Assembly: GCA_903832285.1 (NCBI GenBank)
Contig: CAILAY010000159.1
Span: 13,808 to 77,807 of the forward strand
DNA from: an uncultured beta proteobacterium
Lineage (GTDB): Bacteria; Pseudomonadota; Gammaproteobacteria; Burkholderiales; Burkholderiaceae_C
Direction: 5' to 3'
DNA length: 64,000 nucleotides
Part shown: positions 38,593 to 57,344 of the stretch, in pieces
Position numbering within the stretch: position 1 is the first letter of the stretch
Layout of the letters: the number at the start of each line of letters is the position of its first letter
The notes under the pieces: generated by a model
Database searches by the model: none
What the model saw: the letters and a program-made list of their open reading frames with translations, nothing else
What the model was told of the DNA's origin: nothing
Made by a program: the position numbers and the translations under genes

Positions 38593-38628
38593 TTTCGCCA
38601 AAATGTAAACCTTTACATTTTGGCGAAA
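38593..38628. promoter_or_regulatory. 36-bp perfect palindrome, candidate LacI-family operator
   Basis: TTTCGCCAAAATGTAAA-cc-TTTACATTTTGGCGAAA, with 17-bp perfect arms, 56 nt upstream of the LacI-family gene start. The core TGTAAAC/GTTTACA is typical of LacI/GalR-type operators. Confidence 0.6.
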
Positions 38629-38683
38629 CAGGGCTCTTTGGCCCTCCACGAACTGCCCCATTGGGTGCTGCGAGACACGAAAA

Positions 38684-39721
38684 ATGCCCGTTACGATCAA
38701 GGACGTTGCACGCGAGGCGAAGGTCTCGGTCGCGACCGTGTCACGCGCCCTCAACGGGCTGGACAGCGTGACCGTCAAGACGCGGGATCGGGTGATGAAG
38801 GTTGCGGCAGAAATGCACTTCATTCCGTCGAGTGCCGCGCGCAGCCTGATTTCCCGGCGCACGCAAACGATCGGCGTGTTGCTGCCGGACCTGTACGGTG
38901 AGTTCTTCTCTGAATTGATTCGCGGCATCGACCAGGCGGCACGTGCGCACGGCCTGCATTTGTTGATCTCCAGCACCCGCGGTGACGCTGCCGAAGCCGC
39001 TGCAGTCATGAAATCGCTGCATGGTCGCGTCGACGGTCTGCTGGTCATGTCCCCGCACGCGGACGCCGAGTTCCTGTCCCGCAATCTGCCCCGCAACCTG
39101 CCTGCCGTACTCATGAGTAGCCGCGCCACAGGCGGCGTTTTGCCATCGTTCAGTGTCGACAATTACGGCGGCGCGGTGTCGATGATGCGCCACCTGGTCG
39201 GGCGTGGTCATAGCCGCATTGCCATGATCAACGGACCAGAACACAACTTTGATGCACAGGAGCGCCTGCGCGGCTATCGCGATGCCATGGCGCAGTTGGT
39301 GCCGGGCACCGAAGAGCTTGTGCTGCAGGGCGATTTTTCCGAAGAGTCTGGCTGGCGCACGGGAAACCAGATTCTTGCCTTGGCGCAACGCCCCACGGCG
39401 GTTTTTGCGGCCAACGACATGATGGCCATCGGTTGCCTGTTTGCGCTGAACGAAGCCGGTGTGCAGGTGCCCGGTGAAATCGCCCTGGCCGGTTTTGACG
39501 ACATTCCGATTGCGCGTTTTGTATCGCCTCCCTTGACCACGGTGCGCGTACGTATTGCAGAGTTGGGGTCCATGGCGCTGGAACGTCTGGCCATGGGCAT
39601 TGAACACCCTGAGCGCATGTCGGCGTCCCCACAGACGTTGCGCTGCGAACTGGTGGTGCGGAGTTCCTGCGGGCGACCGCAGGAGGGGTTGGTATTGGTG
39701 GGTTCAACAAAAGTCCGGTAA
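38684..39721 (+). CDS. LacI-family transcriptional regulator
   Basis: N-terminal HTH (MPVTIKDVAREAKVSVATVSRALNG) plus a periplasmic-binding-protein-like sugar-binding core. Confidence 0.93.
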   Translation: MPVTIKDVAREAKVSVATVSRALNGLDSVTVKTRDRVMKVAAEMHFIPSSAARSLISRRTQTIGVLLPDLYGEFFSELIRGIDQAARAHGLHLLISSTRGDAAEAAAVMKSLHGRVDGLLVMSPHADAEFLSRNLPRNLPAVLMSSRATGGVLPSFSVDNYGGAVSMMRHLVGRGHSRIAMINGPEHNFDAQERLRGYRDAMAQLVPGTEELVLQGDFSEESGWRTGNQILALAQRPTAVFAANDMMAIGCLFALNEAGVQVPGEIALAGFDDIPIARFVSPPLTTVRVRIAELGSMALERLAMGIEHPERMSASPQTLRCELVVRSSCGRPQEGLVLVGSTKVR

Positions 39722-39747
39722 ATCGTGATTTCAACAGGAGAAAAACA

Positions 39748-42579
39748 GTGAGACAACATTTCAAAATGCACAGATTCAGCAAGACCATCATCGCCGGCCT
39801 GATCACTGGCGGTGCCCTGCTGACGCAACCGGCGTTCGCTCAACTGAGCAGTGCCACCATTCGCGGGCAAATCACTCAGGCCGGAGCCCCGGCCACGACG
39901 CCGGTACAAATTGTCGCCACCAACAAGGCCACCGGCGTGGCGCATAAGGCGACCGCAAGGGCCGACGGGACCTATGTCCTGCTCGGCTTGCCGCCGGGCA
40001 GCTACGCCATCAGCGTGGTGGGTTCCAAGGAGACGTCGCAGGAAGTGACGGTGCAGGTGGGGGAAACCGCTTCTGTCGATCTGGCCTTGGCGGGTGCATC
40101 CGGGGCGACGCTGGACCGAGTCGAGGTCGTTGGTTCACTGCAACGCAAGGACGTGAAGAACTCCGAGGTCGGCACCAGTGTGTCACCCAAACAGATGGAC
40201 TCGCTACCTCAGATCACGCGCAACTTCCTGTCCTTCGCCGATCTGGCGCCGGGTGTGCGCTTTGAAACTGATCAGGTTTCGGGCTTCACGAAGATGCAAA
40301 GCGGCGCTCAAAGCGCGGACCACGTGAACGTGTTTGTCGACGGTGTCAGCCAGAAGAACTACGTTCTGACCGGTGGTGTATCGGGCCAGGACAGCAGCCG
40401 TGGCAACCCCTTTCCGCAGGCAGCCGTGGCTGAATACAAGGTCATCTCGCAGAACTACAAGGCAGAGTTTGATCAGGTCAGTAGCGCCGCCATCATCGCG
40501 GTATCCAAGACCGGTGGCAACGAAACGCATGGTGAAGCCTTTTGGGATCACACTGGCAGCAGTCTGACAAAAATGGACCCGTTCCAGCAAAAGGCGGCAG
40601 CAGCGGGAACACCGCGGCCTTCTTACAGCCAGGATCAATATGGTTTTAGCGTGGGTGGCCCGATCGTCGAGGACAAGATCCACTACTTCGTCAGCTACGA
40701 AGCCAAGGACAATACCAATCCGCGCCAAGTCTCGATGCAAAACCTGAGCGGCGTCGGAGGGGTAGTCCCGGCCCTGATCGCCGCAGAACAGGGATCTTCA
40801 ACGAACAGGTTCAAGGAGGACTTGCTGTTCGGCAAGATCGACTGGCAGTTGTCAGATGATCAGAGTCTGGAAATCACCGCCAAGTACCGCTCCGAAAAAG
40901 ACGCAGGGCTGCCGGAAAACTGGTCACTTAGCGGGATCAGCAATACCAAGGACAGATCCAATGACGAAACTCGGTTGGACGTGCGGCACGTGCTGACGCG
41001 CGACAACTGGTTGAACGAAGCCCACCTGGGCTATGAGCATTCCAACTGGAATCCACATCCAACAATCAACGCTCCCCTGATCCAGTACAAGACCACCGGA
41101 TGGGGCGATATCATCTGGACCGGCGGAAGCCCGGACTTGCAGAACAAAGGGCAAACGGCAACGCTGTTGCAGGACGATCTGACCTATACCGGCATTGCGA
41201 CGCACACGCTCAAGACGGGTGTCAAACTGAAGATCGCTGAATTCGACATGTCCGGTACGCAGAATGCGGTGGTGAACATGGCGCGCTTCATTCAGCCCGA
41301 CGGTACGGTCAATCAAACACTGAACCCGGACGTCATCTTCAGCCCGGCAACAGCACCCGTCAAAGCGAAATTCAAAGACAACCAGTTCGGCATTTACCTG
41401 CAGGACGACTGGCAGGTGAGCAAGCAGACGGAACTCAATCTCGGCGTGCGCTGGGATTACGAGGACAACATGCTGAATAACAAGTATGTCATGCCGGCAG
41501 ACCGTGTGGCAGCGTTGATGGGCCCAGATACCCGCGCCGGAGCGGCACCAGGCCAGACCTACGCCCAATCCTTGGCCAAGGGCGGCATCAATATCAGTGA
41601 CTACATCGGGACTGGCAATCGCAAGTCATTCACCGGCGCCATCCAACCGCGACTCGGCACGTCGTATGACATCACGGGCGACAAGGGTTCGGTGCTGTTT
41701 GCGGGCTGGGGTCGCGCCTACGACCGCACATTGGCAAACAACACGCTGGATGAACTCAGCAAGAACATGGCGGCGAACGGTGAAATTTGGGGCATCAAGA
41801 ACAACGTCAAGATGCCGTTCACCGATCAGTTCAGCGTGGGTCTGCGCCAGAAATTGGGGAACTGGAACGGTGAAGTGACTTACACCAAATCACAACAGTT
41901 CAATCAATTTGTGCTGTTCTCGGGCAACCGCGATCCGAACGGCGGCTTTGGTGGCTCTGGCCCGGCAGATCCGCTCTGGGGCGGAGCACCCGGGTTCGGC
42001 AATCTGGTGCTCGGTGACTTCACCGGAAAGACCCGCACGCAGACCATCTTCCTGAAGGCTGACAAGCCATACACCAAGACGTCCGGTTGGGGCACAACCA
42101 TCGCGTATACCAACAGCAAGGGTGAAACGACCAACGCCGAGGGGACGACCGATGTGTTCTCGTGGACTTCGGGTCCCGGAGGCAAGTTTGCAGGCACCGG
42201 TCTGCATGCGAGCAACGACGTGGAGCGTCACCGTGTGGTCGCGACGGGCATCGTGGACATTCCCTATGGCTTCCTGCTGTCGGGCAAGCTGACCTGGGGC
42301 TCGGGGTTGAACTACACCTACATGGATTGCTCGGCGGGTTGCGCCTGGTTCCACGACAAAACGCAGGCCTCGACCACGCAACTTGACGCCGGAGTGTCCA
42401 AGGAATTCGCGCTGCCTGGGAAGACCCGGATCGTGGCCCGAGTTGACGTCATCAACCTGCTCAATGCCAACAACTGGGGCGCCTACGATCGGTTCCCTTG
42501 GGACTCGACATATCAACAGCCGACAGGAATGTCGGGCCCGATGCGCACCATCAAACTGGGCCTAAAATTCCTCTTCTAG
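39748..42579 (+). CDS. TonB-dependent outer-membrane receptor with N-terminal carboxypeptidase-regulatory-like domain
   Basis: Signal peptide (..TQPAFAQ), CarbopepD_reg-like segment (ATIRGQIT..DGTYVLLGLPPGSYAISV), plug (LDRVEVVGS..), a long beta-barrel and a terminal aromatic residue (..LGLKFLF). AGGAG lies 7 nt before GTG 39748. Confidence 0.9.
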   Translation: MRQHFKMHRFSKTIIAGLITGGALLTQPAFAQLSSATIRGQITQAGAPATTPVQIVATNKATGVAHKATARADGTYVLLGLPPGSYAISVVGSKETSQEVTVQVGETASVDLALAGASGATLDRVEVVGSLQRKDVKNSEVGTSVSPKQMDSLPQITRNFLSFADLAPGVRFETDQVSGFTKMQSGAQSADHVNVFVDGVSQKNYVLTGGVSGQDSSRGNPFPQAAVAEYKVISQNYKAEFDQVSSAAIIAVSKTGGNETHGEAFWDHTGSSLTKMDPFQQKAAAAGTPRPSYSQDQYGFSVGGPIVEDKIHYFVSYEAKDNTNPRQVSMQNLSGVGGVVPALIAAEQGSSTNRFKEDLLFGKIDWQLSDDQSLEITAKYRSEKDAGLPENWSLSGISNTKDRSNDETRLDVRHVLTRDNWLNEAHLGYEHSNWNPHPTINAPLIQYKTTGWGDIIWTGGSPDLQNKGQTATLLQDDLTYTGIATHTLKTGVKLKIAEFDMSGTQNAVVNMARFIQPDGTVNQTLNPDVIFSPATAPVKAKFKDNQFGIYLQDDWQVSKQTELNLGVRWDYEDNMLNNKYVMPADRVAALMGPDTRAGAAPGQTYAQSLAKGGINISDYIGTGNRKSFTGAIQPRLGTSYDITGDKGSVLFAGWGRAYDRTLANNTLDELSKNMAANGEIWGIKNNVKMPFTDQFSVGLRQKLGNWNGEVTYTKSQQFNQFVLFSGNRDPNGGFGGSGPADPLWGGAPGFGNLVLGDFTGKTRTQTIFLKADKPYTKTSGWGTTIAYTNSKGETTNAEGTTDVFSWTSGPGGKFAGTGLHASNDVERHRVVATGIVDIPYGFLLSGKLTWGSGLNYTYMDCSAGCAWFHDKTQASTTQLDAGVSKEFALPGKTRIVARVDVINLLNANNWGAYDRFPWDSTYQQPTGMSGPMRTIKLGLKFLF

Positions 42580-42597: not shown

Positions 42598-42627
42598 CCG
42601 CAGTGACGATCATTTTCGTCACTGCGG
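42598..42627 (+). terminator. hairpin after the TonB-dependent receptor gene
   Basis: CCGCAGTGACGA (42598-42609) and TCGTCACTGCGG (42616-42627) form a 12-bp perfect stem with a 6-nt loop. No U-tract follows. It may be a partial terminator or an mRNA-processing element. Confidence 0.4.
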
Positions 42628-42794: not shown

Positions 42795-44297
42795 ATGAAC
42801 GTCCAAACCCGCCAACCCTGGCTGATCGCGCCGCTGGTCACGTTGCTGATTGCCGGCCTTTTGGGCGGCTGCGTGGGCGGTTGCAGCAGCTCTGGCGGCG
42901 GGGCCACAACCAGCACGCCGGGCACGCCAGCCGCGCTGCTTCCGCCTCCCCTGCCGATCCCCGCGCCGCCGTTGCCCGCGCTGTTTGACGACCTGCAAAA
43001 AAGCACGTTCAACTTTTTCTGGGACACGGCCAATCCGGTCAACGGCATGGTGCCCGACCGCTGGCCCAATCCGCCGTTTGCCAGCATTGCCTCCGTGGGT
43101 TTTGCGCTCACCGCCTATGGGGTTGGAGTCGAACGCGGCTACATCACGCGCTCTCAGGCCCGGGACCGCACGCTGACCACGGTGCGCTTTTTCCGCGATG
43201 CGCCGCAGGGCCCAGAAGCCACCGGCAAATCCGGCTACAAGGGGTTTTTCTATCACTTTCTGGACATGACTACAGGCGCTCGGTTTGACAAGACCGAACT
43301 CTCCACCGTGGACACTTCGCTGCTGCTGGCGGGCTTGCTGTTTTCCCAGTCCTACTTCGACGGCGCTGACGCGCAGGAGACGGAAATCCGCGCTGCGGTG
43401 GACACAATTGCGGGTCGCGTGGATTGGGCCTGGGCGCAGCAAAATCATGCGCCCAAAGTGAGCATGGGCTGGTTGCCTGAAAGCGGTTATATCAACGCGG
43501 ACTGGGCTGGTTACAACGAAGCCATGCTGGTGGTCCTGATGGGGTTGGCCTCGCCGACGCAGCCTTTGGCCGCGTCGGTCTGGACCGATCTGACTGCCAC
43601 TTACGACGCCGATTGGAGTCGCACGCAGGGCTACGACTACCTCAGCTTTCAGGCGCTGTTTGTGCACCAGTTCACGCACCTGTGGGTGGATTTTCGCAGC
43701 ATCCAGGACGCGTACATCAAGGGCCGAGGAATCGACTATTTCGAGAACAGTCGCCGTGCCACTTATGCACAACGCGCCTACGCCATCGCCAATCCCTTGC
43801 ATTGCAAAGGCTATGGCGCCAACATATGGGGCATCAGTGCCAGTGACGGACCGGGGGATCTCAAAGTGGTTGACTATGCGGGGCAGCAGCGCCAGTTCAA
43901 GGACTATTTTTCGCGCGGCGTTGGTTTGCCTGATCCGTTTGACGACTGCACCATCGCACCCTCGGCGGCTACCTCGTCGCTACCTTTTGCGCCCGAGTTG
44001 GTGATTCCTGCGGTGCAGGAGATGCAGCAAACTTACGGTGCCACGCTCTACGCCCAGTACGGATTTCTTGAGGCCTTCAATCCGAGCTTTGTCGACATCC
44101 AGGCCACGCTGAGCAACGGGCGCGTGGCGCCGGGTTTTGGCTGGGTGGACACCGCCTATGTGGGCATCGACCAAGGACCGATGGTGGGCATGATCGAAAA
44201 CTATCGCAGCGACTTCGTCTGGCGCACGATGCGCAAGAACACCAACCTGCGGCGTGCCTTGCTAAGCGCCGGGTTCAGCGGCGGCTGGCTGAACTGA
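42795..44297 (+). CDS. lipoprotein, glucoamylase-like (PF10091-type) protein, candidate GH144 endo-beta-1,2-glucanase
   Basis: Lipobox (LLIAGLLGGC) followed by a Ser/Gly/Pro linker. The core (..FNFFWDTANPVNGMVPDRW..SIASVGFALTAYGV..GFFYHFLDM..ELSTVDTSLLLAG..) matches my memory of the 'putative glucoamylase' domain family that includes the characterised Chitinophaga GH144 enzyme. Family assignment is not verified by search. Confidence 0.6.
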   Translation: MNVQTRQPWLIAPLVTLLIAGLLGGCVGGCSSSGGGATTSTPGTPAALLPPPLPIPAPPLPALFDDLQKSTFNFFWDTANPVNGMVPDRWPNPPFASIASVGFALTAYGVGVERGYITRSQARDRTLTTVRFFRDAPQGPEATGKSGYKGFFYHFLDMTTGARFDKTELSTVDTSLLLAGLLFSQSYFDGADAQETEIRAAVDTIAGRVDWAWAQQNHAPKVSMGWLPESGYINADWAGYNEAMLVVLMGLASPTQPLAASVWTDLTATYDADWSRTQGYDYLSFQALFVHQFTHLWVDFRSIQDAYIKGRGIDYFENSRRATYAQRAYAIANPLHCKGYGANIWGISASDGPGDLKVVDYAGQQRQFKDYFSRGVGLPDPFDDCTIAPSAATSSLPFAPELVIPAVQEMQQTYGATLYAQYGFLEAFNPSFVDIQATLSNGRVAPGFGWVDTAYVGIDQGPMVGMIENYRSDFVWRTMRKNTNLRRALLSAGFSGGWLN

Positions 44298-44299: not shown

Positions 44300-45586
44300 A
44301 TGCTGGCGCCACGCCGCTTTCTGGCGCGCTTGTCCGGCTCCATCGGCCTGGCGTGCCTGTTGGCGTTGGCCGCATGTGCGCCCCGGCAGGAAACGGTGAG
44401 CTTCTGGGCCATGGGGCGCGAGGGCGAAGTCGTGGCCGAACTGTTGCCCGAGTTTGAACGCACACATCCCGGTATCAAGGTGGTGGTGCAGCAATTACCC
44501 TGGACCGCTGCACACGAAAAATTGTTGACCGCGTTTGCTGGCGATGCCACCCCTGACGTGGCGCAGTTGGGCAACACCTGGATTCCGGAGATGGCCGCGC
44601 TGGGTGCATTGGAACCATTGCGGCCGCGCGTTGCAACCTCGAGCGTGATTGTGCAGACCGATTACTTCCCAGGCATCTGGGACACCAATGTGATCGGCGG
44701 CGAAGTCTTCGGCGTGCCCTGGTATGTGGACACACGGCTGCTGTTTTATCGCAAGGATCTGCTGGCGCAGGCGGGCTTCACCGCACCGCCCTCAACCTGG
44801 GACGAATGGCGAAAGATGCTGGCCGCGATCAAGGGCAAGGCGGGAGCAGAGCGTTACGCGGTGCTGCTGCCCGTGAACGAGTTCGAACCGCTGCTGGTGC
44901 TGGGATTGCAGCAGGGCGCGCCGCTGCTGCGCGACGACGGACGTTGGGGAAATTTTCGCAGCGACGACTTCCGCAAGGCATTGGGTTTTTACCGCGAGAT
45001 GTTCGAGCGCGGCTGGGCGCCGGCCATGACCAACAACCAGATCGCGAATCTATACACTGAGTTTGGTCGTGGCTACTTTTCTTTCTACGTCTCGGGTCCG
45101 TGGAACATCGGCGAGTTCAAACGCCGTTTGCCAACCGAACAGCAAGACCAATGGATGACGGCCCCCATGCCGGGGCCGGAGGGACCGGGCGCGTCCACTG
45201 CAGGCGGCTCCAGTCTGGCTGTTTTCAAGGCGTCCAGGCACAAGGCGCAGGCCTGGGCGCTGGTGGAATATTTGTCCAGTCCGGCAGTGCAAGAGCGCTT
45301 TCACGCGCTCACGGGAAACCTGCCGCCACGTCGTTCCGTGTGGGCCACAGCAGCCCTGGCGAACGATGTCTATGCGCAGGCATTTCGAGCGCAACTGGAG
45401 CGGGTCAAGCCCTCGCCCAAGGTGCCCGAATGGGAGCGCATCGCCAACGAAATGCAGTTGCTCGCGGCTCAGGTGGTGCACGGCAAGCTCACGGTGGACC
45501 AGGCCGTGACGGAACTGGACGCAAGAGTGGATGCCTTCCTCGAAAAGCGTCGCTGGATGCTGAAGCAGGGGGGTGCCAAACCATGA
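44300..45586 (+). CDS. ABC transporter sugar-binding lipoprotein (CUT1 family)
   Basis: Lipobox (LLALAAC) and an extracellular solute-binding family-1 pattern (..VSFWAMGREGE..LPWTAAHEKLLTAFAGD..PDVAQLGNTW..). Confidence 0.9.
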   Translation: MLAPRRFLARLSGSIGLACLLALAACAPRQETVSFWAMGREGEVVAELLPEFERTHPGIKVVVQQLPWTAAHEKLLTAFAGDATPDVAQLGNTWIPEMAALGALEPLRPRVATSSVIVQTDYFPGIWDTNVIGGEVFGVPWYVDTRLLFYRKDLLAQAGFTAPPSTWDEWRKMLAAIKGKAGAERYAVLLPVNEFEPLLVLGLQQGAPLLRDDGRWGNFRSDDFRKALGFYREMFERGWAPAMTNNQIANLYTEFGRGYFSFYVSGPWNIGEFKRRLPTEQQDQWMTAPMPGPEGPGASTAGGSSLAVFKASRHKAQAWALVEYLSSPAVQERFHALTGNLPPRRSVWATAALANDVYAQAFRAQLERVKPSPKVPEWERIANEMQLLAAQVVHGKLTVDQAVTELDARVDAFLEKRRWMLKQGGAKP

Positions 45587-50444: not shown

Positions 50445-52421
50445 ATGACAAGACGCAATTGGTTGCCGGCTTCGTTGCTGTTGGCAATCCATGGCGCTGC
50501 CGCGCTGGCCGATCCGCTGCCGGTGCAGGCTTTCTTTTCCAAACCCGCGATAGGCGTTGTTTCGCTGTCGCCGTCGGGAAAGACACTGGCGGCAACACTG
50601 CTGGGCGGGCGCGGCCGCATGGAACTGGCGATTGCCGATCTCGATCAGCAGCCCTTGAAGTTCAAGACAGCCGCGTGGCTGCGCGACTACGATGTCGCCG
50701 ATGTCTCGTGGGTCAATGAAAAGCGCATGGTCTTCCAGGCCTACGACTCGCAGGCAGGCAGTTGGGCTGGAGTTTCCGGTCTTTGGGCTGTCGATGCCGA
50801 CGGCGAAAACGGGAAGCTCCTGATCGACCCCAAGTACGGCGGCTATCGGCTCATGGCAACCAAGTCAACAAACGTGTTGCCCGGCGAATGGGCGCTGTTT
50901 TCGACGTTGACCGACGGAACGGACGATGTCTTGATCGCAGAGTTGCCGGCATACAACTCGCGACTCGAGACGGTGACGCTGGCCAGGCTCAATACGCGCA
51001 TGGTCTGGCCGGTGCGTCTGACCAGTGATGCGCCGGATGGAGCTTACAACTGGATCGTTGACGGCAAAGGAATTCCGCGCTGGGTCGAGAGCTTCGCCGA
51101 TATGAAGCGGCACATCTTTGAACGCACTCAGGACCGCTGGAGGGAGGTCGCCAGTTTCGATGCGACTCGCCCGGTCGGTTGGGCCCCGCGCTTCTTGATC
51201 GAAGACCAGTTGTTTGTCGCGGCCGAATCGGGTTCAAGCGTTGGTTCGCGTTTGACGCTGTTCGACGCTGGCAGCGCCGCGCCAGGCGCGGTGCCGATTC
51301 TTGCGGCCCCTGGGTTTGACGTAGGGAACAATGCTCACCCGCTGATCGACGCGGACAGCAAGCGACTGCTCGGATGGCGCTACACGCTGGACTCCGTCTA
51401 CACGCGGTGGATCGACGCAACGATGCTCAAGGCACAGGCTCTTATCGATGATGAAATTCCCCAGCACATCAATCTGATTCATTGCCAATCATGTCTTAGT
51501 GCGAAGCGCTGGCTCGTGTCCAGCATTTCTGATCGAGATCCAACAGCTTATTCGATCTTCGAGCCCGCCACGGGGCGACTCCAGGCCATCGGCAGTCCCT
51601 ATCCGCAGATACTCCCCAAAGACTTGGGAGCGCGCAGTTTTCACCGGATCAAGGCGCGGGACGGCGCTGATTTGCCGGTGTACATGACCCTGCCGGGAGG
51701 CTCCTCCGTCAAGAATCTTCCGGCGGTGGTGCTGGTCCACGGCGGGCCCTGGTCTCGTACGAGACTCGAATTCGGCATGGTGGCGCAGTTCCTCGCGTCG
51801 CGTGGCTACGTCGTTATCGAACCCGAATTTCGTGGCAGCACCGGCTATGGCACGGCGCATTTTGTCGCAGGCTGGCGCCAATGGGGGCTGGCGATGGAAG
51901 ATGACTTGCAGGACGCCCTGCAATGGGCCATCGGCAACGGTTGGGTGGATGGTCGGCGCGTCTGCATCATGGGCGCCAGCTATGGTGGCTATGCGGCCTT
52001 GATGGGCGTGGTGCAGCACCCTGGCAGCTATCGCTGCGCCATCAGCTGGGTTGGCGTGACCGACCTGCCGGAGTTGCTGAAAAATGATCGTTTCAGTTGG
52101 GGCGCAAAGGATGTCACCACCGTGATAGAAGAACTTTCCATCGGTGATCCCGAACTTCAGCGGGACAAGCTCAAGCAAACTTCACCGGTGTTCCGTGCCG
52201 CCGCTATTCATGTGCCCGTGTTGGCAGCCTGGGGCAAGGATGATCTGCGCGTGCCGATCGAACAGGGACGTGATTTCCGGGATGCGGCAAAACGCGCGGG
52301 TGTCGATCTGGAATATGTCGAATACGCCGAAGAAGGTCACAACTGGCTCAAGGCGGAGACGTCCATCGATTTCTTCACCCGCGTCGAGAAGCTGCTGGCG
52401 CGCACCATCGGACAAAAGTGA
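50445..52421 (+). CDS. secreted S9-family (prolyl oligopeptidase-type) alpha/beta serine hydrolase
   Basis: Signal peptide (LLLAIHGAAALA) and an N-terminal propeller-like region. Catalytic residues: GASYGGY (Ser), GKDDLRVP (Asp), EGHNW (His). Confidence 0.85.
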   Translation: MTRRNWLPASLLLAIHGAAALADPLPVQAFFSKPAIGVVSLSPSGKTLAATLLGGRGRMELAIADLDQQPLKFKTAAWLRDYDVADVSWVNEKRMVFQAYDSQAGSWAGVSGLWAVDADGENGKLLIDPKYGGYRLMATKSTNVLPGEWALFSTLTDGTDDVLIAELPAYNSRLETVTLARLNTRMVWPVRLTSDAPDGAYNWIVDGKGIPRWVESFADMKRHIFERTQDRWREVASFDATRPVGWAPRFLIEDQLFVAAESGSSVGSRLTLFDAGSAAPGAVPILAAPGFDVGNNAHPLIDADSKRLLGWRYTLDSVYTRWIDATMLKAQALIDDEIPQHINLIHCQSCLSAKRWLVSSISDRDPTAYSIFEPATGRLQAIGSPYPQILPKDLGARSFHRIKARDGADLPVYMTLPGGSSVKNLPAVVLVHGGPWSRTRLEFGMVAQFLASRGYVVIEPEFRGSTGYGTAHFVAGWRQWGLAMEDDLQDALQWAIGNGWVDGRRVCIMGASYGGYAALMGVVQHPGSYRCAISWVGVTDLPELLKNDRFSWGAKDVTTVIEELSIGDPELQRDKLKQTSPVFRAAAIHVPVLAAWGKDDLRVPIEQGRDFRDAAKRAGVDLEYVEYAEEGHNWLKAETSIDFFTRVEKLLARTIGQK

Positions 52422-52451: not shown

Positions 52452-55400
52452 CTAGCCCAGCAGCACGCGCAGGCGATGGATCGCGCCGTCCTTGAGCAGC
52501 GCCACTGCCACGACATCTGGGGTGCACGCAACGCTGGCATCGTCCAGCGTTGCCGATACAACGCCCTGAGCCCTGCGCTGCGGGTTGGTGACCTCGATCT
52601 CGTAGCGGGTGCCGTCACCCAGCCGATAACGCATCGTGTAGCCCGGCCAATCGTCTGGAATTCGGGGCGCCAGTCGCAGCGTGTTGCCGCCTTCGATGGA
52701 GAAGCCCAACAGGGATTCGATCGCCACGCGGAACATCCAGCCAGCCGATCCCGTGTACCAGGTCCAGCCGCCACGGCCCACGTGCGGCGCCACGCCGTAG
52801 ATGTCGGCGGCGATCACGTAGGGTTCGACCTTGTAGCGGTCCGCGTCAGCGGCATGGCTGCTGTGGCTGATGGGGCTGAGCATCTTCAGCAACTGCGCGG
52901 CGCGCTCACGCCGTCCGGCCATGGCCATGGCCTTCACCACCCACAGCGCAGCGTGGGTGTACTGGCCGCCGTTCTCGCGCACGCCCGCGACGTAGCCCTT
53001 GATGTAGCCGGGATCGTGCGGCGTGTTCTCGAACGGCGGCGTGAGCAGCCGGATCAGCTTGTCATCATCGTTGATGAGATGTTGTTCCAGCGCGTCCAGC
53101 GCCTTGTCTGCGCGCTCGGACGGGGCCACGCCGGAGATGATGGCCCAGGCCTGCGCCAGGGCGTCGATCTTGCATTCGTCGCTGTCCCTGGAACCCAGTG
53201 GAGCGCCGTTGTCGTACCAGGCACGCCGGTACCAGTCGCCGTCCCAGCCCGAGTCGTTCAGCGCCAGCAACAGGTCCGCGCGATGCTTCCGGTACCTTGA
53301 GGCACGGGCACGGTCGCTGCGCGTATCGCACCATGGCAGGAAGTCGCCCAGGATGGTGTAGAGGAAGAAGCCCATCCACACGCTTTCACCTTGGCCTTCC
53401 CGCCCGACGCGGCTCATGCCGTCGTTCCAGTCGCCGCAACCGAACAAGGGAAGGCCGTGCACCCCCCGGGCGAGCGAACGGTCAATCGCGCGGCAGCAAT
53501 GCTCATACACGTCGGCGCTTTCACCCGAGTCGCTGGGCTGCAGATAGCGTTCGTCTTCTTCCGTGGCCAGGAATTCGGCACTGACAAACCGGGCCTGCTC
53601 CTGCATCACGCTGTCGTCACCGGTGGTGTTGATGTAGTAGGCGGCAAGGTAGGGCAGCCACAGCAGGTCGTCGGCAAAGCGCGTACGCATACCTTTGCTC
53701 AAGGGCGGGTGCCACCAGTGCAGCACGTCGCCTTCGACAAACTGGTGTGCAGCGTTGATCAGGATTTGCTGGCGCGTCAGATCGGGGCGCAGGTAGATGA
53801 GCGAGGCCGCGTCCTGCAACTGGTCGCGAAAACCGTAGGCCCCACCCGACTGGTAGAACGCCGTGCGGCCCCACATGCGGCACGCCAGATTCTGGTATGG
53901 CAGCCAGCCATTGACCATGATGTCGATCTCTCGGCAGGGCGTTTCGATCTGCATGCCGCCCACCAAATCGTGCCAGAACTCGCGTACCTGCGACAGCGCG
54001 GCGTCGACGGCACCGGGAACCCTGAGGCGCGCAAGCAGTGGCGCCAGTTCGGCCTCATCACTGACCTCACCCAGGAAGAAACTCAACTCGCCCGTCTCGC
54101 CGGGGGAGATGTCGAGCGTGGCGTGCAAAGCGGCACAGGGCTGGCTTCCGATGGCCTGATTCAGCGGGCCGCCGCGACGCACGGCCTGCGGCGCGGCCAT
54201 GCTGCCGGGTTGCCCCAAAAATGCGGCTCGATCTGCGGCCCAACTCAGGCTTTCAGTCTGATCGACGGCGGCGAAGGCCACGCGCTGGGCAAACGCACCC
54301 GCTTGTGGGTTGCGGGCGCACAGCGCCGCGACGTCGCGGTCGAATGCAACGCTGACATCGGCTTGCGTGGCCTCGGGTGCGACGCCCAGCACCCAGCGGT
54401 TAAAGCCGTAGACCGAGAGCCTGCGCGTCTTTGTGCCGGTGTTCTTCAGGCGCAGGCGCAGCACGCGAACCGGATCATGTTGCGGCACGAACATGCAGGC
54501 TTCCTGCTCCAGTCCGTGTGCGTGCAGGTACCAGGTGGAATAGCCAAAACCATGGCGCACCTCGTAGTCCGCGCTCGCCGGCGCCGGACCCGGCAGGGGC
54601 GACCAGAAGGCGCCCGAGTCGTCGTCGCGCACATAACAGGCATCGTCATGGGTATCGCTGATGGGGTCGTTGCTCCAGGGCGTCAAGCGGTGCTCGCGGC
54701 TGTTGCCCGCCCACATCGTGCCCGCGCCTTTTTCACTCACGACTACGCCACACAGGGGATTGGCCAACACATTGGTCCAGGGCATCGGCGGCAGCTTCAG
54801 ACCCGCGGCGCCCTGGTGTGGCAGGCGGATGACGTATTCGCTGCCGTCGGCACTGAAGCCACCGTAACCATTGAAGAATTGCAGTGCCTCGGGCGTCACG
54901 CCCGTACCGGGCTCGGCCGCAAAGGGCTGCTGCGTTGGCAGCGTCCCGCGCTGATCGCCTGCGCCCTGACTCAGGTCCGCCCAAACGCTGTCCGGAGGTG
55001 GCGCTGTGGCCGGATCCTTTGGCGCACCGCTTGCCTTTGCCTGCGCAAACAGCGACCTCACGTCAAGCGCTGACCAGCTGACTGCGGCTTGCAGCAAGCC
55101 GGCGCGATCGGGCGCAACGCCCAGGGCAAAGCACAGCGTCTGCGACTCGCCAGGCGCCAATGTGATGACGGTGCGAAGCGCCAGCGCGGGGTCCAGCACA
55201 TTGCCCGTGCTGCCACTGAGACGCGTGTTGTCCGCGAGCGCCACCGGGGCGCTGCAGTCGCGCCCACGGCCGATGAAACGAGCGCGCTCACTCTCCCACT
55301 CCGTAACCCTGTTCTGCAGCAGCGTCATCGCCACGCAGGGATGGTTTTCGGTGTTGCTGCGTGCACGGCGCTTGGCCAGCAACGTTTGCACATCGGGATG

Positions 55401-55874
55401 CCATTCGGTCTGCACGAAGAGCTTGGAGAAGGCGGGGTGACCGGCGTGATCAGCAGGGTCGTTCAGCACCACTTCGAGATAGCTCGTGACTTCGATGCGG
55501 CGCTCACTTTGGCCGTGATTGTCCAGGCGCACGCGGCGCAGTTCCAGCAATCCATCCGGGCTCAGGCAGATGTCGGTGCGCGAGGCGACGCCGTGGTGCG
55601 TGCGTCGAATGCTCGCCACAGCGCCGGAAATCGTCACCTCGCCCGCGCTTTGCCCGGGCACCGGGGAGGCGGAGGCGGTCCAGATTTGGCGATCGTCCAG
55701 ATCGCGCAGGTAGACGAACCAGCCACCATTCTCTTGCACGCTATCGGGTTTCCATGCGTTGAGCAGATAGTCGCCATAGGCGGAAAAACCGGCACCTCGT
55801 GCGGTCAGGAAAACGCGGTAGTCGGCGCTGCAGAGCCAGAGCGGCGCGTGATGCTTCGTAGGGGTCGTTGCCAC
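52452..55874 (-). CDS. GH94-family glycoside phosphorylase, candidate 1,2-beta-oligoglucan phosphorylase
   Basis: 1140 aa with no signal peptide. GH94 hallmarks are present: GGAYGFRDQLQD, HWWHPP, GCGDWNDGM (catalytic Asp context) and GGQYTHAALW. Its length and its GH144-like neighbour favour the long sophoro-oligosaccharide phosphorylase type over the roughly 800-aa cellobiose or chitobiose phosphorylases. Substrate is inference. Confidence 0.7.
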   Translation of the reverse strand: MATTPTKHHAPLWLCSADYRVFLTARGAGFSAYGDYLLNAWKPDSVQENGGWFVYLRDLDDRQIWTASASPVPGQSAGEVTISGAVASIRRTHHGVASRTDICLSPDGLLELRRVRLDNHGQSERRIEVTSYLEVVLNDPADHAGHPAFSKLFVQTEWHPDVQTLLAKRRARSNTENHPCVAMTLLQNRVTEWESERARFIGRGRDCSAPVALADNTRLSGSTGNVLDPALALRTVITLAPGESQTLCFALGVAPDRAGLLQAAVSWSALDVRSLFAQAKASGAPKDPATAPPPDSVWADLSQGAGDQRGTLPTQQPFAAEPGTGVTPEALQFFNGYGGFSADGSEYVIRLPHQGAAGLKLPPMPWTNVLANPLCGVVVSEKGAGTMWAGNSREHRLTPWSNDPISDTHDDACYVRDDDSGAFWSPLPGPAPASADYEVRHGFGYSTWYLHAHGLEQEACMFVPQHDPVRVLRLRLKNTGTKTRRLSVYGFNRWVLGVAPEATQADVSVAFDRDVAALCARNPQAGAFAQRVAFAAVDQTESLSWAADRAAFLGQPGSMAAPQAVRRGGPLNQAIGSQPCAALHATLDISPGETGELSFFLGEVSDEAELAPLLARLRVPGAVDAALSQVREFWHDLVGGMQIETPCREIDIMVNGWLPYQNLACRMWGRTAFYQSGGAYGFRDQLQDAASLIYLRPDLTRQQILINAAHQFVEGDVLHWWHPPLSKGMRTRFADDLLWLPYLAAYYINTTGDDSVMQEQARFVSAEFLATEEDERYLQPSDSGESADVYEHCCRAIDRSLARGVHGLPLFGCGDWNDGMSRVGREGQGESVWMGFFLYTILGDFLPWCDTRSDRARASRYRKHRADLLLALNDSGWDGDWYRRAWYDNGAPLGSRDSDECKIDALAQAWAIISGVAPSERADKALDALEQHLINDDDKLIRLLTPPFENTPHDPGYIKGYVAGVRENGGQYTHAALWVVKAMAMAGRRERAAQLLKMLSPISHSSHAADADRYKVEPYVIAADIYGVAPHVGRGGWTWYTGSAGWMFRVAIESLLGFSIEGGNTLRLAPRIPDDWPGYTMRYRLGDGTRYEIEVTNPQRRAQGVVSATLDDASVACTPDVVAVALLKDGAIHRLRVLLG

Positions 55875-55928
55875 GGAGATTGACTTCAGTTGTAGGCGCT
55901 GGGAAAAGAGGTGCTGAGCGGAGAGGTG

Positions 55929-57296
55929 CTAGCGCTCGGCTGTCGGTTCGCCCAGCGCGCGGCCACCCGTTGCAATGACGCGCGAGTAGTAATGGGCGCT
56001 GTCCTTGGGCGTACGCTGCTGCGTCTGCAGGTTCACGTGGACCAGGCCGAAGCGTTTGGAAAATCCATGCGACCACTCCAGGTTATCCAGCAGCGACCAT
56101 GCGAAATAGCCGCGCAGATTCACTCCCTGAGCCATGGCCTGATGCAGCGCCTGCAGGTGCTTTTTTAGATATGCCACACGCAGCGGATCACACAGTTGTC
56201 CCTCTTCGGCCACCGGAGGGTCGTAAAAGGCGGAGCCGTTTTCCGTCACATACAGCGGCAGATCGCCATAGCGGTGTTTCAGCCAGAGCAGGGTGTCGGT
56301 CAGACCCTGCGGATAAACCTCCCAGCCGGTTTCCGTGATGGTCGCGTGCGACTGACGCACCGGCGAGGCCCTCACTGGCCAGGCGTTTTCATCGTGCCGG
56401 TTTACGCTTCGCGTGTAGTAATTCACACCCAGAAAATCGATGGGTTGGCGGATCAGGTCCATGTCGGCCTGAGGCCAGACCGGCCAGGCTGCGCCGAAGA
56501 TTTCCGTCATTTCCTGCGGGTAGCACCCCAGCAGGGCGGGGTCAAGGTACTGCCGGTTCATATAGGCATCAGCGCGCTGGGTCGCTGCCAGATCGGCCTC
56601 GGCGCTGGATGCCGGATGCTTGGGTTCGATGTTCACGACCAGGCCAATCTGATGCTTGCCAATAGCCCTGTACGCCTGCACTGCGGCTCCGTGGGAGCGC
56701 ATCAGATGGTGCGTGGCAATCGGTGCCTCGTACAGGTTGCGGTGTCCCGGTGCCAGCGTACCGTGCAGATAGCCGCCATCCGTGACGACCCAGGGTTCAT
56801 TCAATGTGCACCACAGCTTCACCCGGTCATCTAGCGTGCGGAACATCAGGGCGGCGTAGTCGGCGAACCAGTGCGCGCTATCCGGATTGAGCCAGCCACC
56901 ACGGTTGTCCAGCGCCTCGGGCAGATCCCAATGGTAGAGGGTGGCCATGGGCTGGATGCCGTGGGCCAACAGGCAATCGACGAGGCGTTCGTAGAAATCC
57001 AGTCCCCTCGCGTTGACGCGCCCCGTGCCGTCGGGCAAAACACGACCCCAGGCGATGCTGAAGCGATACGCCTGCAGTCCCAGCTTGTGCATGAGGGCGA
57101 CATCCGATTCGAAGCGGCGGTAGTGGTCACAAGCCACATCGCCCGTGTCGCCGTGCGTGATCATGCCGGGTGTGTGGGCAAACCGCTGCCAGATGCTGGG
57201 CCCCGCGCCATCGGCGGTGGGCGAGCCTTCAATCTGGTAGGCCGAGGTGGCACTGCCCCACAAGAACGAGTCCGGAAACTGGAAATCAGTGGCCAT
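55929..57296 (-). CDS. GH1 beta-glucosidase
   Basis: FPDSFLWGSATSAYQIEG at the N-terminus, acid/base TLNEP and nucleophile YVTENG. I chose the start at MATDFQFP (complement 57294-57296); the ORF opens at 57410. Confidence 0.93.
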   Translation of the reverse strand: MATDFQFPDSFLWGSATSAYQIEGSPTADGAGPSIWQRFAHTPGMITHGDTGDVACDHYRRFESDVALMHKLGLQAYRFSIAWGRVLPDGTGRVNARGLDFYERLVDCLLAHGIQPMATLYHWDLPEALDNRGGWLNPDSAHWFADYAALMFRTLDDRVKLWCTLNEPWVVTDGGYLHGTLAPGHRNLYEAPIATHHLMRSHGAAVQAYRAIGKHQIGLVVNIEPKHPASSAEADLAATQRADAYMNRQYLDPALLGCYPQEMTEIFGAAWPVWPQADMDLIRQPIDFLGVNYYTRSVNRHDENAWPVRASPVRQSHATITETGWEVYPQGLTDTLLWLKHRYGDLPLYVTENGSAFYDPPVAEEGQLCDPLRVAYLKKHLQALHQAMAQGVNLRGYFAWSLLDNLEWSHGFSKRFGLVHVNLQTQQRTPKDSAHYYSRVIATGGRALGEPTAER

Positions 57297-57326
57297 CAGG
57301 ATGCGATCGTGCGAATTGGATGGAAA

Positions 57327-57344
57327 AATGTAAACGTTATCATT
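57327..57344. promoter_or_regulatory. second LacI-type operator-like site upstream of the GH1-GH94 operon
   Basis: AATGTAAACGTTATCATT lies 31-48 nt upstream of the GH1 start. The extended 11-mer AAAATGTAAAC (57325-57335) is identical to 38600-38610 in the palindrome upstream of the LacI gene. Confidence 0.5.

Follow-up and report, generated by a model that had tools for sequence, protein, structure and literature searches.

Gene content and organisation of the locus

The window (the whole stretch of DNA that was analysed, 64 kb) carries a string of co-oriented genes on the forward strand for a LacI-family repressor, a TonB-dependent receptor, a GH144 protein, an ABC importer, a 1032-aa protein (P1032) and a secreted S9-family hydrolase. 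This string is convergent with a GH94-GH1 operon on the reverse strand (Table 1). The earlier note on this DNA had described the same gene string and two-gene operon, and all ten genes were found with the positions, strands and sizes given there. Forward-strand genes adjoin or share 4-base overlaps, with the start of permease 1 overlapping the stop of the binding-protein gene. Signal peptides or lipoboxes are present on the receptor, the GH144 protein, the binding protein and P1032, and none is present on the GH94 and GH1 proteins.

Table 1. Genes and predicted regulatory features of the locus, in window coordinates.
Feature	Position	Strand	Details
Sigma-70-like promoter (candidate)	38566..38594	+	TTGTCA, 17 nt spacer, TATATT; before lacI
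Operator O1 (predicted)	38600..38621 (core 38603-38618)		Palindrome AAAATGTAAACCTTTACATTTT; upstream of lacI
LacI-family repressor	38684..39721	+	345 aa; PF00356 E 2.3e-17, PF13377 E 3.3e-38
Oar-type TonB-dependent outer-membrane receptor (TBDR)	39748..42579	+	943 aa; orthologue class of XCC2208
Stem-loop, strong, 12 bp	42598..42627	+	Just past receptor stop codon; no U-tract
GH144 endo-beta-1,2-glucanase, lipoprotein (predicted)	42795..44297	+	500 aa; Pro-rich tether; lipobox LLGGC; PF10091
CUT1 solute-binding lipoprotein (SBP), predicted sophoro-oligosaccharide binder	44300..45586	+	428 aa; lipobox LAAC; PF01547 E 4.4e-46
ABC permease 1	45583..46473	+	296 aa; PF00528 E 1.1e-17; UgpA/MalF-like (NCBIfam)
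ABC permease 2	46470..47303	+	277 aa; PF00528 E 1.1e-20; UgpE/MalG-like (NCBIfam)
P1032, periplasmic multidomain protein	47300..50398	+	1031/1032 aa; orthologue class of XCC2203
Secreted S9-family serine hydrolase	50445..52421	+	658 aa; PF00326 E 1.3e-37; GASYG serine motif
Free-standing Cgs-type GH94 phosphorylase, cytoplasmic (predicted)	52452..55874	-	1140 aa; PF06165, PF17167
GH1 beta-glucosidase, cytoplasmic (predicted)	55929..57296	-	455 aa from Met39; long ORF to 57410
Operator O2 (predicted)	57328..57343		ATGTAAACGTTATCAT; about 32 bp upstream of GH1 start

A CUT locus combines a receptor, an inner-membrane transporter, a carbohydrate-degrading enzyme and a sugar regulator in one locus (Blanvillain 2007; PMC1790865), and all four lie next to each other here. 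No SusD-like protein occurs among the ten scanned gene products, and thus the SusC/SusD pair of a Bacteroidota-type PUL is missing. A GH13 gene without an operator match lies 0.7 kb beyond GH1.

Regulatory elements

A 16-bp LacI-type palindrome is confined to the fronts of the two operons. Matches to ATGTAAACGTTTACAT with up to three mismatches number two in the 64 kb (O1 and O2) against 0.02 expected, a count reached by 0 of 100 shuffles. Since the palindrome stands only upstream of lacI and GH1, both convergent operons appear to form one regulon. The candidate promoter directly upstream of O1 agrees with the consensus at 10 of 12 positions in a consensus scan.

Most related loci have the O1 motif 45-90 bp in front of lacI, and many have a site equivalent to O2 before GH1, including some in which kilobases separate GH1 from the core. 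In these relatives, conservation of the operator motif extends to sites upstream of the receptor gene, the GH144 gene and malK in addition to those at lacI and GH1. O2 falls inside the long GH1 open reading frame and one assembly calls a 455-aa protein, which together favour the short start at Met39. The stem-loop behind the receptor gene may act in partial termination or transcript stabilisation; the RNA fold of 42578-42660 has an energy of -37.2 kcal/mol (z -4.4), equalled by 0 of 200 shuffles.

Proteins that indicate a probable substrate

The protein at 42795, which had been expected to belong to GH144, matches PF10091 (E 1.6e-73; 247.3 bits, cutoff 27), the structure of the Xanthomonas enzyme XcSGL (8xul; XCC2207) with E 1.9e-181 and CpSGL (5gzh) with E 3.8e-39. 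Residues of the SGL clan are kept at E242 (GYNEAM), F289 (QALFVHQ) and Y371 (FKDYFSRG), equivalent to E239, F286 and Y367 of XcSGL; positions were read off a HMMER alignment with 8xul, and the choice of residues follows the published study (PMC12102758). In sequence the protein corresponds to XcSGL at orthologue level, and it is predicted to be an endo-beta-1,2-glucanase. XcSGL is an endo-glucanase by its 2025 characterisation: Sop7 spans its cleft, and the beta-1,2-glucan that it cuts has to be polymeric. Of the glucans tested it acted on beta-1,2-glucan alone, with no activity towards CM-cellulose, barley glucan, lichenan or laminarin (PMC12102758).

Among characterised proteins, the binding protein is closest to Lin1841, the Listeria binder of sophoro-oligosaccharides (Sop3-5). 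The two align end to end (E 4.7e-66, 227 bits), the PDB match that follows Lin1841 falls to 3.8e-37, and the maltose- and trehalose/maltose-binding proteins listed reach at most 118 bits. The ABC sugar-binding protein 3uor, which we take to be the Xanthomonas citri 'MalE', matches with E 4.6e-162. Of the parts of a CUT1 importer, the locus encodes the binding protein and both permeases. A gene for a MalK-type ABC ATPase is missing both from the 64 kb of the window and from the Rhodoferax locus, but 42 of the 80 related loci have one, preceded by the operator.

The protein at 52452-55874, expected to be GH94, matches PF06165 (E 2.3e-133, split over two segments) as well as PF17167 (E 7.5e-118), in agreement with the supersandwich and catalytic (alpha/alpha)6 domains of that family, and the three motifs quoted for it earlier are all present (HWWHPP at residue 719, GCGDWNDG at 812, GGQYTHAA at 969). 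Judged from sequence comparison, the characterised protein that lies by far nearest to it is cyclic glucan synthase (Cgs; 8rf9), through its beta-1,2-glucan phosphorylase module, with E 8.9e-246 and 821.9 bits in two stretches. Residues 10-259 correspond to Cgs 1540-1794 (GP1) and residues 313-1099 to Cgs 2009-2788 (GP2-3), so that the three GP subdomains align over nearly all of the window protein. The catalytic Asp is kept as D815 in GCGDWNDG, aligned with the GGDWNDG of Cgs, in which the catalytic residue is D2528. Scores drop to about 266 bits for cellobiose and chitobiose phosphorylases, 68 for laminaribiose phosphorylase and 39 for cellodextrin phosphorylase; the cellobiose/chitobiose-type enzymes lack the extra N-terminal GP1 subdomain.

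The earlier proposal of a beta-1,2 phosphorylase thus stands by way of the Cgs clade, but not by way of the Listeria/Lachnoclostridium SOGP clade (Lin1839/LpSOGP, EC 2.4.1.333) that it had named, to which the match (5h3z, E 1.5e-4, 23 bits) lies below those to the cellodextrin and laminaribiose phosphorylases. The three-subdomain layout resembles that of LpSOGP at fold level only. A literature search found no characterised free-standing Cgs-type GH94 enzyme.

The GH1 protein matches PF00232 (E 7.8e-159) and TIGR03356 (602.1 bits, curated cutoff 478.5) and contains the NEP acid/base (TLNEPW) and ENG nucleophile (VTENG) motifs. Its best PDB matches are deposited as generic beta-glucosidases only. 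A GH1 enzyme associated with beta-1,2-glucan has precedent in SGR_2426 of Streptomyces griseus (PMC12369401), which was not among the best 60 PDB matches of the window protein.

Receptor and P1032

The receptor is of the Oar type with a CarboxypepD_reg domain (PF13620, E 3.4e-10), followed by matches to PF25183 (E 1e-49) and PF00593 (E 5.1e-12); the barrel was recognised, and the signal peptide ends in AFA-Q. The plug domain gave a weak match (17.7 bits, cutoff 23.9), and a TonB-box-like TLDRVEV, located by eye, resembles the TLDAVQV of XCC2208, for which the same atypical plug and TonB-box features are recorded.

P1032 is the new element of the system, with two CBM-like domains joined to a six-hairpin catalytic fold that has no solved or characterised relative. 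Behind its signal peptide lie a CBM11-like beta-sandwich (residues 32-186), a CBM32 (198-295), a beta-supersandwich (330-545), an (alpha/alpha)6 barrel (558-936) and a C-terminal beta-sandwich (937-1030), as seen in AF2 models with pLDDT 85-86 and pTM 0.82-0.89. The best Foldseek matches were GH94 and GH15 enzymes, with TM 0.5-0.6 and 9-14% identity, a likeness at superfold level only. Searches of the PDB with the single sequence and with a 49-sequence profile matched only the CBM domains and gave no relative of the catalytic part. Scores against PF17389 (17.7 bits, cutoff 24.5) and the GH15-like TIGR01577 (31.6, cutoff 820.7) fell below both cutoffs, and the catalytic region significantly matched neither an established family of glycoside hydrolases or phosphorylases in Pfam and NCBIfam nor a solved structure.

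Conservation of the locus

At least 591 species genomes, chiefly from Xanthomonadales and Burkholderiales, contain the core order LacI-TBDR-GH144-SBP-permease-permease-P1032, and many carriers of the locus are plant-associated. Among the 60 related loci with enough flanking sequence, the genes for GH144, the binding protein and both permeases lie 5' of the P1032 gene in every one and are colinear in 59, and a LacI gene heads 46; the P1032 gene is always 3' of the GH144 and ABC genes. In a close relative the convergent operon reads GH1-glucokinase-GH94. The gene overlaps and abutment, the palindrome at the operon fronts and this recurring core order together indicate that the arrangement is not due to chance.

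The S9 hydrolase gene is probably co-transcribed with the genes upstream of it in the window. None of the 80 related loci has it, nor do two close relatives (L083 and L084), and it is therefore better regarded as a lineage-specific passenger than as the part of the system that the earlier note had made of it.

Proposed function

The observed gene content, homologies, common operator, conserved synteny and predicted compartments form a setting in which the locus is likely a single LacI-controlled regulon through which beta-1,2-glucans, and sophoro-oligosaccharides formed from them, are captured and broken down. Beta-1,2-glucan is indicated as the substrate by three independent proteins, and the XcSGL match of the GH144 protein, the Lin1841 match of the binding protein and the Cgs-type GH94 bear out the same reading in the earlier note. 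Most likely the host, a freshwater betaproteobacterium, obtains the glucan from other bacteria, which would release it in linear, cyclic or osmoregulated periplasmic form.

For the route we infer substrates, order of steps, inducer and the role of P1032. The Oar-type receptor would carry the glucan or large oligosaccharides into the periplasm, where the membrane-tethered GH144 enzyme would cut the glucan to short sophoro-oligosaccharides and the soluble P1032 would handle a substrate or linkage beyond the reach of GH144. From the lipoprotein binding protein, sophoro-oligosaccharides would pass to the permease pair, powered by a MalK-type ATPase whose gene lies elsewhere. In the cytoplasm, the GH94 enzyme would release alpha-glucose-1-phosphate by phosphorolysis from the non-reducing end, and GH1 would convert the leftover sophorose and short oligomers to glucose. 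Imported oligosaccharide would lift LacI repression at both operators. Of the complete route claimed earlier, the receptor, GH144, binding protein, permeases, GH94 and GH1 are in place, but the ABC ATPase lies outside the locus. As the P1032 step is tentative, the route may also be incomplete or partly wrong.

Alternative explanations

The same genes could serve the cell to turn over or recycle beta-1,2-glucans of its own, whether periplasmic or secreted (e.g., after osmotic upshift), with the receptor retrieving leakage only. GH144 and P1032 are predicted to be periplasmic, the GH144 of Dyella and Duganella is predicted to be a soluble Sec protein and not a surface lipoprotein, and the Xylella locus XF2445-2449 (P1032 orthologue, permeases, binding protein and GH144) has neither receptor nor LacI. 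Xanthomonadales and Burkholderiales, in which the locus is abundant, both include producers of alpha-1,6-closed beta-1,2-glucans. However, a TonB-dependent receptor with a substrate-relieved repressor is the standard CUT layout for nutrient scavenging, and the window holds no glucan synthesis gene, which makes recycling as the purpose of the locus unlikely. The two uses are not mutually exclusive, and any periplasmic glucans that the cell itself makes would also be open to attack by a periplasmic GH144.

Three further readings change the substrate. Very improbable is a system for beta-1,2-linked glucosides (plant flavonoid or saponin sophorosides, or sophorolipids), from which P1032 would free sophorose or strip the aglycone. 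Natural sophoro-oligosaccharides are reported mainly as sophorosides, P1032 joins carbohydrate-binding modules to an exo-type fold class, and the plant association of many carriers would suit such substrates; yet XcSGL is an endo-glucanase that spans Sop7 and requires the polymer, a Cgs-type phosphorylase works on oligomer chains, and the conserved core gives no evidence of aglycone-handling genes. Slightly less credible again is a cellodextrin, laminarin or chitin-oligomer system built on a cellobiose/chitobiose-type phosphorylase and GH1, as might be read from the automatic names of GH94 homologues, which include 'cellobiose phosphorylase' and 'N,N'-diacetylchitobiose phosphorylase', and from the generic labels of the GH1 matches. 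Against it stand the score of 822 bits to Cgs and 266 to cellobiose phosphorylase, the extra GP1 subdomain, the inactivity of the GH144 orthologue on the corresponding beta-glucans (CM-cellulose, barley glucan, lichenan, laminarin) and a locus with no cellulase, laminarinase or chitinase. Least probable of all is an importer for maltodextrin, trehalose or another alpha-glucan, as historical gene names imply: Xanthomonas orthologues are annotated malE/lacF/lacG, PF10091 is titled 'putative glucoamylase', P1032 has its weak GH15-like signal, and the GH13 gene is close by. Maltose, however, does not induce the XCC2208 receptor gene (ratio 1.03), PF10091 is GH144 with activity of the close orthologue detected on beta-1,2-glucan alone, and the binding protein scores far higher with Lin1841 than with the maltose-type binders listed. 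The substrates of GH94 and GH1 are beta-glucosides, and the GH13 gene is without the operator.

Comparison with known systems

The earlier note knew of no description of such an architecture in a betaproteobacterium, and novelty in this sense was not borne out, given that a Xanthomonas counterpart was listed in 2007 and that a 2022 paper put forward a like route for Ignavibacterium album. XCC2203-2209 was recorded as a 'putative partial CUT locus' with its substrate unassigned and both enzymes 'hypothetical' (Blanvillain 2007; PMC1790865, Table S3). Like the window, it contains LacI, an Oar-type receptor, GH144, a binding protein, two permeases and a large hypothetical protein, an order seen directly in other Xanthomonas species. 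Loci of Xanthomonas species share 57-59% identity with the window in GH144, 58-62% in the binding protein, about 51% in P1032 and 35-40% in the receptor, and the operator motif is the same. In contrast to the convergent GH94-GH1 operon of the window, none of the Xanthomonadales loci examined has GH94 within 10 kb, and their GH1 and MalK ATPase genes are kilobases off or missing from the flank; the S9 hydrolase is an extra of the window.

The beta-1,2-glucanase cluster IALB_1177-1187 of Ignavibacterium album, for which the route was speculative (Kobayashi et al. 2022; PMC8861115), likewise combines GH144, a TonB-dependent transporter and an ABC importer with a Lin1841 homologue. IALB_1177 is described as homologous to the phosphorylase domain at the C-terminus of cyclic glucan synthase (PMC8861115), which the window GH94 also resembles. 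That cluster belongs to another phylum, carries a GH35 transglucosylase and a GH3 homologue without GH1, and no P1032-family member was reported.

In Listeria innocua, lin1838-1841 supports the same sequence of sophoro-oligosaccharide ABC import, phosphorolysis and beta-glucosidase action with the SOGP Lin1839, the GH3 Lin1840 and the homologous binding protein Lin1841. This Gram-positive system differs in having neither receptor nor GH144, a GH3 instead of a GH1 glucosidase and a phosphorylase from a GH94 clade barely detectable from the window protein. The Streptomyces griseus cluster SGR_2422-2427 (PMC12369401) shares with the window the link of a GH1 to a beta-1,2-glucanase and an ABC importer of the Lin1841 type, whereas its glucanase is GH193 and it lacks a receptor, a phosphorylase and P1032.

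Phosphate-dependent control of beta-1,2 chain length by the Cgs phosphorylase module is experimentally established (PMC10901819). The GH94 protein of the window differs from Cgs as a soluble, stand-alone enzyme without the transmembrane, glycosyltransferase and cyclase parts, and without the Rossmann-fold-like (RFL) insertion of roughly 165 residues that Cgs has at the GP1/GP2 boundary. The contexts also differ, being catabolic for the window enzyme and biosynthetic for Cgs.

Gene content and genomic setting

The source organism is Comamonadaceae-like and uncultured, and is represented by metagenome contigs. An earlier note had listed a co-oriented gene string facing a convergent pair encoding GH1 and GH94 proteins; ORF listing and Pfam and NCBIfam scans found every listed gene where the note had placed it, and the GH94 motifs that it had named are all present in the 1140-aa protein. 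Independent gene calls from identical metagenome contigs match the window coordinates of the locus genes.

Features of the locus and of the genes directly beyond it (positions in the window; residue numbers for protein parts)
Feature	Position	Strand	Evidence or remark
Putative operator O1	38600-38621		before lacI
LacI regulator	38684-39721	+	ORF listing, Pfam and NCBIfam scans
Oar-type TonB-dependent receptor, 943 aa	39748-42579	+	CarboxypepD_reg domain and barrel
Stem-loop	42598-42627		perfect 12-bp stem, straight after receptor stop codon
PF10091/GH144 protein	42795-44297	+	Pfam
CUT1 binding protein	44300-45586	+	
Two permeases	45583-46473 and 46470-47303	+	
P1032 (1032 aa)	47300-50398	+	
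P1032, predicted N-terminal part	signal peptide; CBM11-like sandwich 32-186; CBM32 198-295		AlphaFold model
P1032, predicted rest	beta-supersandwich 330-545; (alpha/alpha)6 barrel 558-936; C-terminal sandwich 937-1030		AlphaFold model
S9 hydrolase	50445-52421	+	
GH94 protein, 1140 aa	52452-55874	-	convergent with + strand genes
GH1 beta-glucosidase	55929-57296, or to 57410 from longer start	-	convergent with + strand genes
Putative operator O2	57328-57343		~32 bp upstream of Met39 of the GH1 ORF
76-aa ORF	57438-57668	-	between GH1 and GH13 genes; PF12833, E 7.4e-22
GH13 alpha-glucosidase-like protein	58096-59742	+	
Esterase	59646-60650	+	overlaps GH13 gene
GH127-like / aceric-acid-hydrolase-like protein	60674-62596	+	

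The receptor plug domain gave only a sub-threshold match. Inspection of N-termini predicted lipoboxes in the GH144 protein (LLGGC, with a Pro-rich tether after it) and the binding protein (LAAC), and Sec signal peptides in the receptor, P1032 (the secreted 1032-aa protein) and the S9 hydrolase; no signal was found at the N-termini of GH94 and GH1.

The upstream context (window 1-38509) is ordinary chromosomal, with flagellar (FliF, FliI, FliK) and chemotaxis (CheA, CheB) genes and with genes for an ABC-F protein, SelD, an RpoH-like sigma factor and, together with CtaA/CtaB, an aa3-type cytochrome oxidase. No signs of mobile elements were seen in this stretch, and the GC content of the locus (~0.58-0.66 in 2-kb windows) falls inside the range of the remaining window. 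An Rfam scan of 38000-58500 for structured RNAs returned zero matches. The 76-aa ORF beyond GH1 consists of an AraC-family C-terminal HTH alone and resembles what is left of a truncated regulator of that family. Just past GH1 lies a second carbohydrate gene group (58096-62596, + strand), in front of which no copy of the LacI operator was found.

Pointers to beta-1,2-glucan

On sequence comparison, the GH144 protein, the binding protein and the GH94 protein are three independent pointers to beta-1,2-glucan. The GH144 assignment, predicted in the earlier note, was borne out by PF10091 and by a PDB sequence search, in which XcSGL (XCC2207; PDB 8xul) matched with an E-value of 1.9e-181 and the remaining GH144 structures with ~1e-39 to 1e-50. 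XCC2207 was demonstrated in 2025 to be a beta-1,2-glucanase; none of the other glucans tested gave activity, and the enzyme was crystallised with the sophoro-oligosaccharide Sop7 (PMC12102758). The clan-defining XcSGL residues E239, F286 and Y367 align with E242, F289 and Y371 of the window protein.

The best PDB match of the binding protein is 3uor, an ABC sugar-binding protein (E 4.6e-162), which we take to be the ligand-free 'MalE' of Xanthomonas citri. The second is Lin1841 of Listeria, which binds Sop3-5 and aligns end to end (E 4.7e-66); all later matches have E-values of 3.8e-37 or worse.

For GH94, the earlier note had argued from the 1,2-beta-oligoglucan phosphorylases (SOGP) of Listeria. 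In a bit-score ranking against PDB chains, which is not a phylogeny, cellobiose/chitobiose phosphorylases (~266 bits), laminaribiose phosphorylase (68) and cellodextrin phosphorylase (39) all scored above LpSOGP of Lachnoclostridium (5h3z; 23 bits, E 1.5e-4); the window enzyme has next to no sequence kinship with the SOGP enzymes, and a Listeria-type SOGP identity was ruled out. The nearest clade is that of the cyclic glucan synthase Cgs (PDB 8rf9), and the beta-1,2 argument is retained by this route in place of the SOGP one. Residues 10-259 of GH94 match Cgs 1540-1794, and residues 313-1099 match Cgs 2009-2788; these Cgs stretches form subdomains GP1 and GP2-GP3 of a phosphorylase module whose shortening of beta-1,2 chains depends on phosphate (PMC10901819). 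The Rossmann-fold-like insertion of Cgs (1847-2012; PMC10901819) is lacking in the window protein, where it corresponds to an alignment gap, and the catalytic D2528 of Cgs aligns with D815 in GCGDWNDG.

At E <= 1e-20 there are at least 3,204 free-standing Cgs-type GH94 proteins, to which automatic annotation gives conflicting names ('cyclic beta-1,2-glucan synthetase', 'chitobiose phosphorylase', 'cellobiose phosphorylase', 'GH36-type'). A literature search found no biochemical characterisation of such a protein; the function of IALB_1177 was given as prediction only by Kobayashi et al. (PMC8861115). Homologues P0121-P0240 fall into two length classes of free-standing Cgs-type proteins, one of about 1,120-1,210 aa covering 97-100% of the query and one of about 1,180-1,340 aa covering 71-79%; the longer class may keep an insertion at the site of the Cgs Rossmann-like subdomain. 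The free-standing proteins may be catabolic sophoro-oligosaccharide phosphorylases, a candidate second novelty.

The 1032-aa protein

CBM32 (F5/8 type C) is the sole domain of P1032 above Pfam thresholds. Its catalytic region has no Pfam or NCBIfam family, with GH78-hairpin and GH15-like signals sub-threshold, and PDB searches with the single sequence and with a 49-sequence profile found no relative of this region, matching only CBM32 and the CBM11-like domain. AlphaFold modelled the protein with good confidence, the full length with pLDDT 85.4 and pTM 0.82, and residues 296-1032 with pLDDT 86.5 and pTM 0.89. Foldseek placed the model in the superfold common to GH94 phosphorylases, GH15 glucoamylase, glucodextranase and dextran dextrinase, and GH116, GH65, GH63 and GH78, with TM-scores of 0.5-0.6 at most and 9-14% identity. 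The catalytic region alone retrieved 2,663 clusters at 50% identity (E <= 1e-3), most of which carry the same N-terminal extension. Its invariant residues include a SWIRDG motif, and ten invariant acidic residues (D624, E672, D674, E741, D753, D815, D817, E867, E904 and D918) are placed on the barrel loops. The motif is reminiscent of the sugar-binding WxRD motif of GH15, a lead only.

We conclude that P1032, whose orthologue class includes XCC2203, XAC2307 and XF2445, acts on carbohydrates in the periplasm as an enzyme of an unclassified family and is linked in function to GH144. With somewhat less than even confidence, it is proposed to be the founding member of a new family of glycoside hydrolases (or transglycosylases) specialised in beta-1,2-glucan metabolism, which would do what GH144 cannot. 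Candidates for this activity are the opening or trimming of alpha-1,6-closed glucans, the removal of beta-1,6 branches and the exo-processing of long or cyclic chains. Both Xanthomonadales and Burkholderiales include known producers of alpha-1,6-closed beta-1,2-glucans, and given the synteny with GH144 in these orders, P1032 could be the missing enzyme for breaking down these virulence-linked glucans.

Distribution and synteny

P1032 has 2,184 scored homologues at E <= 1e-5, and a scan of one genome per species confirmed the locus in at least 591 species genomes. Most carriers belong either to the Xanthomonadales (Xanthomonas, Stenotrophomonas, Lysobacter, Pseudoxanthomonas, Luteimonas and Dyella) or to the Burkholderiales (Rhodoferax, at 70% identity, and Duganella). 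Synteny was sampled in the best 80 of the at least 591 loci, 60 of which have at least 9 kb upstream. All 60 contain GH144, the binding protein and both permeases (colinear in 59), 50 the receptor, and 46 the receptor plus LacI. Within the 10-kb flank, GH1 was found in 29 of the 60 and GH94 in six, all Burkholderiales, so that its absence from Xanthomonadales means 'not nearby', not genome-wide. In Duganella the order continues from the 1032-aa protein to GH1, GH94 and malK.

The S9 hydrolase, which had been counted as a component, is ruled out as part of the system: none of the 80 related loci has its gene, nor do the two closer relatives. One of these two relatives has a convergent GH1-glucokinase-GH94 operon, which fits an output of glucose plus glucose-1-phosphate. 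The proposed ABC importer stands for the binding protein and the two permeases; its ATPase has no gene in the window by tblastn with a MalK query from a related locus, and a MalK-type gene occurs in 42 of the 80 loci. One related locus, on a 693-kb scaffold labelled Nocardiopsis yanglingensis strain A18 (JBJNRH010000001.1), comprises the full Gram-negative set including a TonB-dependent receptor and shares 84-90% DNA identity with Stenotrophomonas loci across 14-19 kb; this assembly is probably contaminated or mislabelled.

A shared putative operator

O1 is a near-perfect palindrome, AAAATGTAAACCTTTACATTTT, directly downstream of a promoter-like TTGTCA-17-TATATT; promoter and terminator scans were overall no better than background, and this site next to O1 is noted only. 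O2, before GH1, is a close copy, ATGTAAACGTTATCAT. They are the sole matches in 64 kb at three or fewer mismatches (0.02 expected; none of 100 shuffles gave two or more). The position of O2 favours the 455-aa GH1 start, which is also called in one assembly. In related loci the same motif precedes lacI, the receptor gene, GH144 and GH1, also where 3-10 kb separate GH1 from the core. The operator shared by both fronts indicates that the two convergent operons are a single LacI regulon, with binding predicted from the motif.

In Xanthomonas translucens (17737-20737 of its locus) the operator has a MalK-type ATPase gene on one side and a divergent zwf-glucokinase (glk)-edd operon on the other, and the Xanthomonadales regulator may thus also reach Entner-Doudoroff genes. 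The stem-loop after the receptor gene (-37.2 kcal/mol, z -4.4) has no U-tract and may uncouple receptor from enzyme expression. In many Xanthomonadales loci the receptor-GH144 intergenic region holds an operator copy in its place.

Proposed route and alternative explanations

From the observed gene content, homologies, operator and synteny, and the predicted compartments, we infer a route in which the TonB-dependent receptor would import the glucan and GH144 would cut it in the periplasm. A periplasmic site is favoured over one at the surface because the GH144 of Dyella and Duganella is a soluble protein of the Sec type. P1032 would process something beyond the reach of GH144, and the lipoprotein binder and permeases, powered by an unlinked MalK, would bring in sophoro-oligosaccharides. 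GH94 would then yield glucose-1-phosphate, GH1 would complete the breakdown of sophorose, and an oligosaccharide would act as inducer of the regulon.

The glucan could be the carrier's own, recycled rather than scavenged; this agrees with most of the data and is compatible with scavenging. Import of alpha-glucan, which the 'malE' label would suggest, conflicts with what the nearest characterised relatives act on or bind, and with the absence of maltose induction of the receptor gene XCC2208. That gene was induced by none of polygalacturonate, maltose, arabinose, xylan, xylose, sucrose and glucose (PMC1790865), a pattern that would suit a substrate of non-plant origin and speaks against the label. 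The nearest characterised relatives likewise contradict use of cellodextrin, laminarin or chitin, and use of sophorosides finds no support in the conserved core.

Significance and comparison with known systems

In Agrobacterium, Brucella, Xanthomonas and many others, beta-1,2-glucans serve as osmoprotectants in the periplasm and as factors in the interaction with hosts; the consumption of these glucans by other bacteria is, to our knowledge, known from a few enzymes only. The analysis gives a likely substrate to a locus without assignment in Xanthomonas since 2007 and present in at least 591 species genomes, and the shared operator delimits its regulon. Two enzyme targets are singled out: P1032, which is large, conserved and periplasmic and lacks characterised relatives, and the free-standing form of the Cgs phosphorylase module, which is widespread. 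If the route is right, soil, water and plant carriers can live on, or recycle, glucans of a class that serves pathogens as a virulence factor. Sophoro-oligosaccharide enzymes are also of use in synthesis.

The earlier note knew of no description of this architecture for a betaproteobacterium; the core is already in the 2007 Xanthomonas catalogue, where both enzymes are entered as hypothetical proteins and counterparts are given in X. citri (XAC2307-2313), Xylella (XF2445-2449, without receptor or LacI) and Sphingopyxis (Blanvillain 2007, Table S3; PMC1790865). A literature search for XCC2203-2206, XCC2209 or a described proteobacterial beta-1,2-glucan locus returned only this catalogue and the 2025 XcSGL paper, which names gene clusters once, in its introduction, and TonB nowhere (PMC12102758). 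Xylella fastidiosa, a reduced-genome pathogen, keeps GH144, the binding protein, the two permeases and the P1032 orthologue but has neither the receptor nor the LacI gene, which hints at a role independent of outer-membrane uptake. A route of like logic was proposed earlier, as speculation, for Ignavibacterium album (PMC8861115), and the first GH1 tied to beta-1,2-glucan was reported from Streptomyces in 2025 (PMC12369401). Set against this earlier work, the window system is a proteobacterial version of a known type of system; its substrate assignment follows from recent work, and the unexplained pieces are the P1032 family and the stand-alone Cgs-type phosphorylase.
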